This document shows positions 37,077 through 45,279 of a DNA stretch of 64,000 nucleotides, piece by piece. Numbering within the stretch: position 1 is the first letter of the stretch; every line of letters begins with the position of its first letter. The translations under genes and the position numbers were made by a program. Source of the stretch: an uncultured Chloroflexia bacterium (GTDB lineage Bacteria; Chloroflexota; Limnocylindria; Limnocylindrales; CSP1-4). The notes below the pieces were generated by a model that was not told the DNA's origin, made no database searches, and saw nothing but the letters and a program-made list of their open reading frames with translations. The stretch covers positions 116,972-180,971 of the forward strand of contig CAVPYV010000002.1 in the NCBI GenBank assembly GCA_963710105.1, written 5' to 3'.

Positions 37077-37453
37077 TGGTGGAGATGGGGGAGAGTCGAA
37101 CTCCCCGTCCAGAACCCTTCGCCGGAGACCACTACGAGCGTGTCCGATGGTTTGTCGTCGACCGCCCGGACGAACATCGGCACCCTGCCGGACGGTCCAG
37201 TCACGTGCCCCTAGATCGGGCTTGATTCCGGACTACGCGACGCTCGTCCGGACCGCATCCCCGCTGAATGACGCTTCCACCGTCCGCGAGGAGGAGACGG
37301 CTTCCACGCTCACACTAGCTGCTTACGCAGCGAGGGCGAGAGTCGACTGGCGGTTGCCAGGTACTTCGTTTTGCTGCCTGATTAACGAGGCCTGAGCAGC
37401 ATCCTCGGCTCGCGTTCCCCGGTAGCCAGGCCCTGTCGAATCCACACATCCCC
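37077..37453 (-). ncRNA. ssrA: tmRNA; predicted tag (A)GNRQSTLALAA* at 37358-37323
   Basis: 5' GGGGATG pairs with 3' CATCTCC-ACCA including the G3-U wobble; GGATTCGAC D-loop-like and GTTCGACTC T-loop motifs; tag ORF ends in LALAA-TAA. Confidence 0.96.
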
Positions 37454-37511: not shown

Positions 37512-37704
37512 GCGCGGGGACCGGGACGATCCTCCCATCGCGGCGGGTCTCGATCGGCTGCTATCGTTGTGAGCGGCCGAACCTCTCATCGAGGGCGGGG
37601 GACCCACGTCCCCACGGGGCAAATCGCGGATCGACCGCGACGGCGAACCCACGCCGCGCCCGACAGCTCACCTCGCAGGCCCGCGGGCTGCTTCGAGGTA
37701 CGCG

Positions 37705-43018: not shown

Positions 43019-43486
43019 TCAGCGGCCGCGCTGGGCGTCGGCCATCTCGCGGGCGACGTCCCGCTTCGCGTCGCGGTCGGCGATGTCCCGCCGGCGGTCG
43101 AAGAGGTTCTTGCCGCGGGCCAGACCGAGCTCGAGCTTGGCCCGTCCCTTTCCGGTCAGGTACAGCCGGAGCGGCACGATCGTCTGGCCCTTCGCCTTCG
43201 TCCGGCCGAGGAGCTCGTCGATCTCGCCGCGGTGGAGGAGGAGCTTGCGGATCCGCTTCGGCTCGTGGTTGTAGCGGTTCGCCTGCTCGAACGGGGCGAT
43301 GTGGGCGCCGATCAGCCAGGCCTCGTCGCGCTCGATCCGGGCGTACGCGTCGGACAGGTTGACCTTGCCGGCCCGGATCGACTTGATCTCCGTGCCGGTC
43401 AGGACGATCCCCGCCTCGAAGGTCTCGTCGATCGTGAAGTCGTGACGGGCTCGCCGATTGAGGGCGATCGTCTTCTCGTCAGCCAC
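43019..43486 (-). CDS. smpB: SsrA-binding protein
   Basis: IALNRRARHDF, EAGIVLTGTEIKSIR, RKLLLHRGEI and GKNLFDRR. Confidence 0.97.
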   Translation of the reverse strand: MADEKTIALNRRARHDFTIDETFEAGIVLTGTEIKSIRAGKVNLSDAYARIERDEAWLIGAHIAPFEQANRYNHEPKRIRKLLLHRGEIDELLGRTKAKGQTIVPLRLYLTGKGRAKLELGLARGKNLFDRRRDIADRDAKRDVAREMADAQRGR

Positions 43487-43556
43487 CGTGGTTCCTTGTC
43501 CGGTTGCGCCGTCGCGGACGCAGATCTTCGTTCATTTCCTGTGCCCCCACACGCAC

Positions 43557-43583
43557 GAAGGCCGGCCCTTGCGGACCGGCCTC
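43557..43583 (-). terminator. hairpin with GCAA tetraloop, probable terminator
   Basis: GAGGCCGGTCC-GCAA-GGGCCGGCCTTC on the minus strand, followed by only a weak G/U tract. Confidence 0.55.
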
Positions 43584-43614
43584 CGAAAGCGTTCCCACCC
43601 ACAGGGGTGACCGA

Positions 43615-43665
43615 CTAGACGGCCATCTCCTGCGAGGTGGTGCAGCTACGCGTACTGTCGATCAC
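43615..43665 (-). CDS. candidate 16-aa peptide MIDSTRSCTTSQEMAV
   Basis: AGGAGGTGA SD ends 6 nt before GTG; own promoter upstream and hairpins downstream; too short for the ORF track. Confidence 0.5.
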   Translation of the reverse strand: MIDSTRSCTTSQEMAV

Positions 43666-43693
43666 TGCACATCACCTCCTTTCGTTCCGGGAA

Positions 43694-43722
43694 ACCGTAC
43701 AGGAACGTCCCGCAGCCTGCAA
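43694..43722 (-). promoter_or_regulatory. sigma70-type promoter for the small-ORF unit
   Basis: TTGCAG (43722-43717), 17 nt, TACGGT (43699-43694). Confidence 0.55.
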
Positions 43723-43809
43723 GCACGCATTGCGCGTCCGCCCCGCGTTCGCGGTGCGCTCGGACCCCGCGCCGGCGGGCACCGCGCCGGGCCTCCGGCG
43801 ACCGACCGC

Positions 43810-45279
43810 TCAGGCGGCCTTCGGCAGTGCCGTCGGGACCGCGGCCGCGTCCTTCGTCAGCAGCTCGACGGCCTTGTCGAGCGCCGGGTCGTTGTCCGGG
43901 CCGGCGTCGGCCGGCGTCGTGACCGGCACGTCCGGGATGATCCCGACGTGATGGATCCAGTGCTTGTCGGGGGTGAGCCACTTGGCGATCGTCAGCTTCA
44001 GGGCCGAGCCGTTCTGGAGCTGGATCCACTGCTGGACCGTGCCCTTGCCGAACGACGTCTCGCCGACGATCGTCGCCCGCTTCCGATCCTGGAGCGCGCC
44101 GGCCACGATCTCGCTGGCGGATGCCGAGCCCTTGTCGACGAGGACGACGAGCTTGATCGACTCGTCGGTCGCGATCCCCTGGCCGGTCGCGTCGGTCGGC
44201 GTCTGCGTCCCGTCGGCGTCCTGCTCCCAGAAGATCGGACCGTCCTTGATGAACTCGCTCGCGATCGCCCGGGCGGCCGTGACGTAGCCGCCCGGATCGC
44301 CGCGGAGATCGAGGATGATCCGCTTCTTGCCGGCCTTGAGGTCGGCCTGCAGGGCATCATGGAACTTCGTCTGCGAGTTGTCGGAGAAGCCGGTGACCGC
44401 GATGTAGCCGACCGTCCCGCCGGCGAGGTCCTTGCTGATGACCTCCTTGGAGACGATGACGTCGCGGACGACGGTGATGTCGATCGGGGCCGCCTTCGCC
44501 CGGACGATCGACAGGACCACCTCGGTCCCCTTCTTGCCGCGGATCTTGTTCCGTGCGCCGTCGACGGTCAGCCCGTCGAGCGAGGTCCCGTCGACGGCGA
44601 GGATCGTGTCGCCGGCCTTGATCCCGGCCTTCTCCGAGGGCGAGCCCTCGATCGGGGTGATCACCACGAGGCGGCAATCCGGCCCGAGGGTCGTGCAGTC
44701 GGACGTCTCGCCCTTCGCGTTCTGGGTGCCGATCTCGGCGCCGATCCCCTCGAACGAACCGGACAGGTCCTGCAGCCCCTGGCTGTACTGCTCGGGCGTC
44801 AGGTAGGCGGAGTAGGGGTCGCCGAGCAAATCGACCATCCCCTTGATCGCCCCGTCGATCAGGCTCTTCTGGTCCTCGCCGCCGAGCGCGAACCGCTTGA
44901 GGATCGTGTCGTAGCTGTCCCAGAACGGCTGGAACGCCTGCTCCGAGGCGACCGGCGTGCCAGGCTGCTCGACGCTCCGTTGGCCGACGAGGAAGCCCGA
45001 CACGAAGAGCGCGCCGCCGGCCAGGACGGAGACGACGATCGTCGCGAGGGCGAGGATCGGGCCGCGGGCGGTCGAGGCCGGCCGCGGGGCGGCCGGCGGG
45101 GCGACAGGCTCGGTCGGCACGGGCGGGATCGCCGGGGACGCCTCGGCCACGGCAGGAGCCTCGGCGGCCGCGGCCGGGTCGCCGCCGCGCTCCGCAGCGA
45201 AGGGCGCCTGCGCGTCTTCGCCGAATTCGGGCGGAATGGAGCCGGCGGAAGCGAGCTCGCGGTGGTCGGGAGGGAGCAT
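43810..45279 (-). CDS. S41 C-terminal processing protease (CtpA/Prc-like)
   Basis: TM anchor, LGDPYSAYL, FEGIGAEI, PDZ domain, ILDLRGDPGG, SASASEIVAGALQD and SFGKGTVQ. Confidence 0.93.
   Translation of the reverse strand: MLPPDHRELASAGSIPPEFGEDAQAPFAAERGGDPAAAAEAPAVAEASPAIPPVPTEPVAPPAAPRPASTARGPILALATIVVSVLAGGALFVSGFLVGQRSVEQPGTPVASEQAFQPFWDSYDTILKRFALGGEDQKSLIDGAIKGMVDLLGDPYSAYLTPEQYSQGLQDLSGSFEGIGAEIGTQNAKGETSDCTTLGPDCRLVVITPIEGSPSEKAGIKAGDTILAVDGTSLDGLTVDGARNKIRGKKGTEVVLSIVRAKAAPIDITVVRDVIVSKEVISKDLAGGTVGYIAVTGFSDNSQTKFHDALQADLKAGKKRIILDLRGDPGGYVTAARAIASEFIKDGPIFWEQDADGTQTPTDATGQGIATDESIKLVVLVDKGSASASEIVAGALQDRKRATIVGETSFGKGTVQQWIQLQNGSALKLTIAKWLTPDKHWIHHVGIIPDVPVTTPADAGPDNDPALDKAVELLTKDAAAVPTALPKAA

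Follow-up and report, generated by a model that had tools for sequence, protein, structure and literature searches.

A conserved small gene with an extended Shine-Dalgarno sequence upstream of smpB in Candidatus Limnocylindria resembles the rre small mRNAs of Alphaproteobacteria

Small mRNAs carrying an over-long Shine-Dalgarno (SD) sequence have been described as rreB in Bradyrhizobiaceae and rreR in Rhodobacterales, with analogues of unknown function in several alphaproteobacterial orders (Hahn et al. 2016, RNA Biol 14:1353; PMC5711450). The rreB gene has a promoter and a terminator of its own and specifies a small mRNA of 165 nt with a 17-nt SD, a GTG start and a small open reading frame (ORF) of 14 codons, and only five nucleotides at the 5' end of its SD region are single-stranded and available as a seed (PMC5711450). 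It binds the 30S subunit strongly, is weakly translated and decays in a manner dependent on its start codon, and Hahn et al. speculated that the over-long SD stalls ribosomes, leading to cleavage and rescue by transfer-messenger RNA (tmRNA) and SmpB (PMC5711450). The RreB and RreR peptides are unstructured and conserved within clades, and their overproduction gave no phenotype (PMC5711450); our literature search found no follow-up work on rreB. CC2171 (Rfam RF01867) is a Caulobacter small RNA (sRNA) of unknown function, validated by Northern blot in Caulobacter and Methylorubrum (bioRxiv 10.1101/2022.01.24.477521). The rli80-hflXr locus of Listeria is a ribosome-dependent transcription attenuator of a ribosome-rescue gene, in which terminator, antiterminator and anti-antiterminator structures are combined with an RLR stalling motif (PMC6310831). 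Here we analyze a compact unit on the minus strand of a 64,000-nt stretch of an uncultured Chloroflexia bacterium (the window; GCA_963710105.1, contig CAVPYV010000002.1, positions 116,972 to 180,971), which lies between an S41 peptidase gene and smpB and which we assign, with a probability of roughly 60%, to the rre type: a ribosome-docking small mRNA of ~135 nt with its own promoter, from which read-through would also supply smpB.

The unit shares with the rre genes a predicted RNA of comparable length (~135-165 nt) with a promoter and terminator pattern, an SD stretched far past the canonical 6 nt onto the free 3' tail of 16S ribosomal RNA (rRNA), and an SD that is mostly buried in a conserved hairpin with a 5-nt seed free at its 5' end. 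Genes of the rre kind start with GTG, rarely ATG, and contain an ORF of ~14-18 codons; the corresponding frame has 13-17 codons in Limnocylindria and 20-31 elsewhere in Chloroflexota, and in rre genes and Chloroflexota alike the frame is conserved within clades and not between them. Several features set the unit apart from its alphaproteobacterial counterparts: 1) it belongs to another phylum and has no sequence similarity to rre past the SD; 2) an additional GGUGG element would give it a two-state SD/anti-SD/anti-anti-SD design, with the stop codon fixed in a hairpin loop; and 3) its synteny with smpB is class-wide, whereas the context of rre is not conserved. For rreB, 30S binding and weak translation have been shown; for the unit they are putative. 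It is filed as a putative variant of the rre kind and not as a member of the rre family. Genes of this kind (rreB/rreR, CC2171) are already described, a precedent that the preliminary description of this stretch had overlooked.

That description had proposed a stand-alone unit with a promoter, a perfect SD, a short frame, hairpins and an internal pairing, and every one of these motifs is found where it was placed on the minus strand (Table 1). The stand-alone character is likewise borne out by a promoter pattern of its own, a short frame that looks genuine and a conserved, predicted SD-hiding hairpin. Conserved copies, which it had suggested searching for, are present in the genus and class-wide. 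In a DNA search of relatives, 33 of 36 same-genus genomes matched the block at 43551-43727 with 82-96% identity, and the flanks on both sides were unalignable; a core of ~95 nt is nearly invariant in the genus, where the adjacent S41 proteins are 67-91% identical (30 species). Searched with a covariance model built from the genus copies, 208 of 301 genomes in the class Candidatus Limnocylindria (137 of the 154 of high quality) each yielded a single copy. The 21-nt 5' motif GAAAGGAGGTGRTGTG[CGT]AGTG is single-copy in 9 further Chloroflexota families, and the reversed pattern, used as a control, has zero matches in any listed genome. At least 9 other Chloroflexota families have a long form, with an RNA of ~200-250 nt, a frame of 20-31 codons, consensus-like TTGACN-17-TAnnAT promoters and U-rich terminators, and its ORF is intact in each copy whose ORF region was complete. 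Because the conserved block has unalignable flanks, and carries a 13-nt complement to 16S rRNA that is near-unique in the genome, the unit is more than a chance arrangement, and we regard it, on the comparative evidence, as a real and strongly conserved small gene.

The SD, which the preliminary description had singled out as the strongest it saw, is indeed exceptional. The 16S rRNA of the same genome ends in ...GGAUCACCUCCUUUCU, and GAAAGGAGGUGAU is a perfect 13-nt complement of this tail (...AUCACCUCCUUUC), of which E. coli or Thermus 30S subunits share 11-13 nt; outside the ribosomal DNA, the 3.47-Mb assembly contains 13-nt matches only at the unit and at one other site. The extended motif is invariant across the class and mostly so across the phylum, and the start codon lies at an optimal, fixed spacing from this maximal SD. 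In the predicted closed fold the first five nucleotides of the 13-mer (GAAAG) are single-stranded, and the SD-hiding stem, P1, begins at the sixth (43678). The other 13-nt match (G000:C2:234998, minus strand, outside the window) reads AGAAAGGAGGTGA, then ACAC, then ATG, and seems to be an ordinary gene start.

Each of the 164 unique copies keeps the short frame open, with 13-17 codons in 161 and 24 codons in three long-form copies. The frame starts with GTG in 160 copies and ATG in 4, and ends with TAG (105), TAA (46) or TGA (13) and no other triplet. The distance from the start codon to the anti-SD segment takes only the values 18, 21, 24 or 27 nt, as loop indels are all multiples of three, and stops interrupt the two alternative frames in 141 and 124 of 161 copies (77-88% closed). 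The encoded peptides are well conserved within clades and nearly wholly different between them (MIDSTRSCTTSQEMAV in the window; MSSSCHATTEAVR, MSNGSCTAASHEVSA, MGSASCLGSGSASMRGSNGVTAV and MSERPSCAGSTNALHTESMGECHR elsewhere), and the residues that clades have in common (C-T-T-S, ...E-V/M) arise from codons within the anti-SD and SD-like helix segments. Same-genus copies hardly vary at any of the three codon positions, synonymous sites being as fixed as the rest. The conserved starts, stops and indel lengths indicate that the frame is probably translated, or at the least read; with a peptide that diverges between clades and synonymous sites that hardly vary within the genus, the nucleotide sequence is under added constraint. 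Two other mini-ORFs at the SD (GUG-CAG-UGA, and MCSDRQYA from an ATG) were discarded, as they are not conserved beyond the family.

The predicted RNA has two mutually exclusive pairings for one segment of the ORF. Within it, CTGCACCACCTC (43645-43634, minus strand) is complementary to GAGGTG-AT-GTGCAG (43678-43665), and the resulting P1 would hide the SD core and the start codon, in agreement with the earlier proposal that the ORF can occlude its own SD. In RNAalifold analyses of 30 and 24 sequences the 13 pairs of P1 are invariant or changed on one side only; compensatory variants appear in distant copies, such as GUGCAU/AUGCGC in locus L061. P1 is part of the minimum free energy (MFE) fold in 52 of 52 representative copies when the downstream D segment is omitted. 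When the SD is instead forced to be single-stranded, the anti-SD is predicted to pair with D in 51 of these 52, lengthening a second hairpin, P2. The unconstrained MFE fold is closed in 28 representatives and open in 24, and the two states are near-equal in predicted energy, with a median difference of 2.65 kcal/mol. Among 160 copies the anti-SD:D pairing is CCACC:GGUGG in 119 and compensatory (CCGCC:GCGG) in 2. Columns of P2 misalign in MAFFT alignments because the length of P2 varies, which made alignment-based covariation at family level unusable, and P2 was assessed by folding each sequence and inspecting its stem. Its outer stem covaries between genera (CGCAGG/CCUGUG, CGUCGG/CCGACG, CUCGGG/CCCGAG, UCCCGG/CCGGGA, CGGAGG/CCUUCG), and the stop triplet occupies the P2 loop column in all alignment rows. 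The small CACCC/GGGTG hairpin competes with a longer hairpin of better support.

A simple consensus scan calls neither a promoter nor a terminator for the unit, so the case for both rests on relatives. The -35/-10 pair falls below the threshold of the scan, the -10 being TAnnnT only, and the hairpin is missed because its tail lacks U. The pattern TTGNNN-N16-18-TANNNT lies upstream of 156 of 160 class copies, and CTTGC is invariant in 30 same-genus copies even though the spacer varies. Seven stem pairs of the terminator-like hairpin show compensatory changes within the genus; its predicted energy has a median of -26.7 kcal/mol and its length a median of 13 bp (52 representatives), and its tail is U-poor in the family of the window and U-rich in relatives of other families. 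The 5' end of the predicted RNA, GAACGA, is identical to the base of the terminator 5' arm, CGAACG, and could pair with the conserved 3' tail GUUCGU; for the family alignment RNAalifold proposes a 4-bp end-to-end pairing (window 43684-43687 and 43552-43556), without compensatory support.

Across the class, the order S41 gene, unit and smpB on one strand is near-universal, the S41 gene being the upstream neighbour in 20 of 20 distant class copies and 101 of 120 loci found by pattern. Hairpin and smpB are separated by a spacer whose median length is 63 nt; it can be as short as 14 nt, is 40 nt or shorter in 24 loci, so that smpB at times starts 14-40 nt past the hairpin, and contains TTGNNN-N16-18-TANNNT in 0 of 160 loci. 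As no recognisable smpB promoter is present in any of the 160, smpB is most likely transcribed through the hairpin, and co-transcription with the unit by read-through of this U-poor structure is probable. Three same-genus species, represented by loci L003, L015 and L022, have the unit in reverse orientation at its usual site, flanked by the S41 gene and smpB (L003:1440-1800; L015:1430-1770; L022:1430-1770); there it retains its promoter pattern, ORF, hairpin and full sequence conservation. Homologues of the unit in other Chloroflexota classes are found not at smpB but ahead of birA-greA-lysS, or immediately ahead of greA. Following from the absence of an antiterminator, the survival of the unit after inversion and the different downstream genes in other classes, we read it as a probable autonomous gene that in Limnocylindria may serve in addition as promoter and leader of smpB. 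A literature search for smpB leaders or Chloroflexota sRNAs of such design found nothing.

We propose the following sequence of events for an rre-type small mRNA of this design. In the closed conformer, the in-frame anti-SD CUGCACCACCUC would pair with the SD and start codon as P1, leaving the 5' GAAAG free as a seed. Docking of a 30S subunit on this seed would melt P1, and the released anti-SD could then pair with the downstream GGGUGG, giving a longer P2 and locking the SD open. The ribosome would translate through the lengthened P2 and terminate on reaching the stop codon, which lies in the apical loop of P2. Ribosome occupancy, acting through RNA lifetime and downstream effects, would probably be what counts, and not the peptide. 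In Limnocylindria the promoter of the unit would probably also feed smpB by way of the U-poor hairpin, so that the unit doubles as the smpB 5' leader. Transcription, the 5' and 3' ends, 30S docking, the order of folding, read-through into smpB and the regulatory output are all inferred here.

Several observations weigh against this assignment. Complementarity in published rre genes spans at least 16-17 nt and extends to the first base of the start codon, whereas in the unit it ends after 13 nt, leaving a 5-nt spacer. Against RF01867, for which the gathering score is 75 bits, the unit reaches 21.1 bits and is thus not a member of that family; with a score so far under the cut-off, homology to rre stands unproven, and the two designs may have converged. 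Because the SD hairpin and the anti-SD:GGUGG pairing hardly vary, with compensatory changes in only two sequences, covariation lends the switch little support, and the comparison of open and closed energies is a thermodynamic prediction. The search for an smpB promoter used one simple pattern, and smpB could instead be fed from the upstream ftsEX-S41 operon.

The first of the competing explanations, more probable than the others but of low probability, is a ribosome-dependent attenuator dedicated to smpB, of the rli80-hflXr or erm type, in which stalled leader ribosomes would block the terminator and raise smpB expression when translation is impaired. In its favour, the unit has a leader ORF and alternative structures, it immediately precedes smpB in the same orientation (20 of 20 distant class copies, 101 of 120 pattern loci), the spacers have no promoter pattern (0 of 160, 24 of them no longer than 40 nt), and the logic is that of hflXr, another ribosome-rescue gene (PMC6310831). 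The alternative structures, however, concern access to the SD and not the terminator. With a ribosome-sized block simulated on the anti-SD, the predicted terminator stem remains complete in 38 of 52 representatives and nearly so in most others; neither an antiterminator under a simulated stalled ribosome nor a conserved competitor for the terminator 5' arm was found in these 52. Because the terminator stays intact under the block, we conclude that there is no antiterminator. The stop codon, moreover, lies ~30 nt upstream of the terminator stem, beyond the reach of a terminating ribosome, the unit is fully conserved when inverted in L003 and L015/L022, and its homologues in the rest of the phylum stand in front of birA-greA-lysS or greA and have strong U-tract terminators. 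A dedicated attenuator is accordingly unlikely, and the earlier suggestion of an off/on attenuation of read-through into smpB is not upheld, given the missing antiterminator, the inversion in three species and the other neighbours elsewhere. An attenuator sensing Thr, Ser or Cys was also rejected: these codons coincide with helix segments, Cys is absent in some copies and there is no antiterminator.

Less probable still is an ordinary gene for a functional micropeptide of 13-17 residues, the RNA structure merely tuning its translation. The conserved frame, start and stop are what such a gene would have, as is the conservation of the peptide within clades, which RreB and RreR also show (PMC5711450). 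Yet the near-complete change of peptide between clades, the origin of the common residues in helix-encoding segments and the invariance of synonymous sites within the genus all run counter to it, and RreB and RreR themselves are unstructured and without phenotype on overproduction (PMC5711450). The preliminary description, which had offered a regulated micropeptide or dual-function sRNA, pointed in the right direction as far as the conserved frame and SD-hiding fold are concerned, whereas the peptide itself is not the conserved object. Its comparison of the MAV terminus with tail-specific protease substrates fails, since the C-terminus is not conserved across the class (...MAV here; ...EAVR, ...EAVK, ...EAER, ...AGL and ...AAA elsewhere), and a C-terminal signal for the S41 protease was rejected for the same variability. 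At the opposite extreme, a purely non-coding base-pairing sRNA with an incidental ORF would account for the invariance at nucleotide level, the structured RNA and the promoter and terminator pattern, and 66% of shuffled ORF bodies in this GC-rich sequence remain open in frame. We consider it very improbable in view of loop indels confined to threes, the exclusive use of GTG/ATG starts and TAG/TAA/TGA stops in 164 copies and across the phylum, and the fixed, optimal spacing of the start from a maximal SD.

Of the described families, CC2171 has a consensus that starts cAAcaAucGAAAGGAGGUGAU-CCAGUG (cGAAAGGAGGUGAU..CAGUG) and ends in a GC-rich terminator, and both parts align to the unit, which lacks any equivalent of the ~45 positions between them in the model. 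In a genome-wide RF01867 search the unit is not listed, and the best match, at 26 bits, is sub-threshold and lies elsewhere (G000:C1:822782-822856). No Rfam family matched the unit when the whole window was searched at the gathering threshold, the region at permissive E-values and nine long-form loci besides; sub-threshold alignments were to CC2171 and, at chance level, to PtaRNA1, FourU (14 bits) and LAGLIDADG-2. A signal for the CC2171 model was obtained in the control genome of Thermus thermophilus as well. With the rli80-hflXr and erm leaders the unit has in common a short leader ORF, alternative structures, a position upstream of a ribosome-rescue or recycling gene and, as in rli80, where a constitutive short RNA has been seen, the expectation of one. 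It differs from rli80 in that its alternatives gate the SD and do not form an exclusive terminator/antiterminator pair, no antiterminator and no conserved stalling motif were found, and the unit survives inversion and relocation. SD-sequestering switches, namely FourU and ROSE thermometers and translational riboswitches, similarly hide the SD and start codon and have a competing conformer that frees them, but the frame gated here is a 16-codon mini-ORF within the switch and not a downstream gene, and P1, at about -25 kcal/mol, is far too stable for a thermometer.

In the literature that we found, small mRNAs with an over-long SD come only from Alphaproteobacteria and have no known function, and a Chloroflexota counterpart would widen that range. 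This counterpart is single-copy and under rRNA-like sequence constraint class-wide, with a longer relative in many other families, so the design would be either much older or much more often reinvented than thought; extended-SD mini-mRNAs may occur in further phyla. The two-state SD/anti-SD/anti-anti-SD arrangement, the stop codon in a hairpin loop and the class-wide fusion to a promoterless smpB offer testable handles on a gene that protein and RNA annotation pipelines have overlooked and that in Limnocylindria probably carries the smpB promoter. As a far-reaching and rather doubtful extension, rre-type mini-mRNAs could be ribosome traps that report rescue capacity: a stall on the mini-ORF, brought about by the over-long SD, would ordinarily lead to cleavage and rescue by tmRNA-SmpB, and in Limnocylindria, where the trap would be joined to the front of smpB, an unrescued ribosome would hold the smpB leader open, stabilising or extending the transcript and giving homeostatic feedback on SmpB supply, with the Chloroflexota, rre/CC2171 and other units possibly forming one ancient and widespread class of ribosome-tethered RNAs.

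Table 1. Features of the unit and its flanking genes (window coordinates).
Feature	Position	Strand	Remark
Unit, promoter to hairpin	~43551-43723	minus	in the 323-nt gap between the S41 peptidase gene and smpB
-35-like hexamer TTGCAG, conserved core CTTGC	43717-43722	minus	direct reading and comparison
-10-like hexamer TACGGT (TAnnnT)	43694-43699	minus	17-nt spacer after TTGCAG; direct reading and comparison
Predicted transcription start	near 43687	minus	from spacing alone
SD AGGAGGTGA	43680-43672	minus	inside GAAAGGAGGTGAT at 43683-43671
Extended SD GAAAGGAGGUGAU	43671-43683	minus	13-nt perfect complement of the 16S 3' tail
GTG start codon	43665-43663	minus	5-nt spacer after the 13-mer
16-codon ORF GTG...TAG	43615-43665	minus	product MIDSTRSCTTSQEMAV; stop TAG at 43617-43615
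P1 5' arm GAGGUG-AU-GUGCAGU	43664-43678	minus	SD core to start codon; predicted to pair with 43634-43646
Anti-SD segment GCUGCACCACCUC	43634-43646	minus	ORF codons 7-11; P1 3' arm, alternatively partner of D
P2 hairpin	43601-43633	minus	stop codon in apical loop; outer stem covaries between genera
D segment GGGUGG	43595-43600	minus	complementary to anti-SD CCACC; would lengthen P2 in the open conformer
Small hairpin CACCC-CTGT-GGGTG	~43608-43595	minus	direct reading
Terminator-like hairpin	43551-43592	minus	13-bp core 43585-43556 with GCAA loop, plus 4-bp extension; covariation
smpB	43019-43486	minus	64 nt downstream of the hairpin; Pfam SmpB E = 1e-58
S41 (Ctp-type) peptidase gene	43810-45279	minus	upstream of the unit; Pfam Peptidase_S41 and PDZ

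The inverted copies show some local features of their own. In L015 and L022 the unit is flanked by a perfect inverted repeat of 10-12 nt, TGAGCGCGAC(GG), with its arms in the 3' coding end of the S41 gene and the 5' coding end of smpB, which suggests that the segment between two short repeats was inverted once, long ago; a comparable flanking pair is absent from L003 and from the window, and the inversion in L003 seems a separate event. An invertible, phase-variable promoter was considered and rejected, since many loci that are not inverted contain exact repeats of 9-11 nt by chance. In L015 (~1445) and L022 (~1752) smpB seems to begin with ATT-CCC-GAG behind a good SD (GGAAGGAG and CCAGGAG), and it may have a non-canonical ATT start there or a start annotatable elsewhere.

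The long-form relatives likewise have structural elements of their own. A covarying long-range helix, GCUGCGCAGGCAG/CUGCCUGCGCGGC, is seen in L221-L238, L191-L204, L110, L132 and L153 and takes the form GCACAGG/CCUGUGC in L203. In some, GGAGGUGAUG recurs within the ORF, and a 3' CUCCUUUG would be able to form pairs with CAAAGGAG at the 5' side. For the most part these relatives precede birA-greA-lysS, with mreB in divergent orientation. In the window itself, a tmRNA (121 bits) is located at 37077-37453 on the minus strand, ~5.6 kb downstream of smpB, and a cyclic di-AMP riboswitch (57 bits) at 37565-37695 on the plus strand is divergent from the tmRNA and adjoins it.

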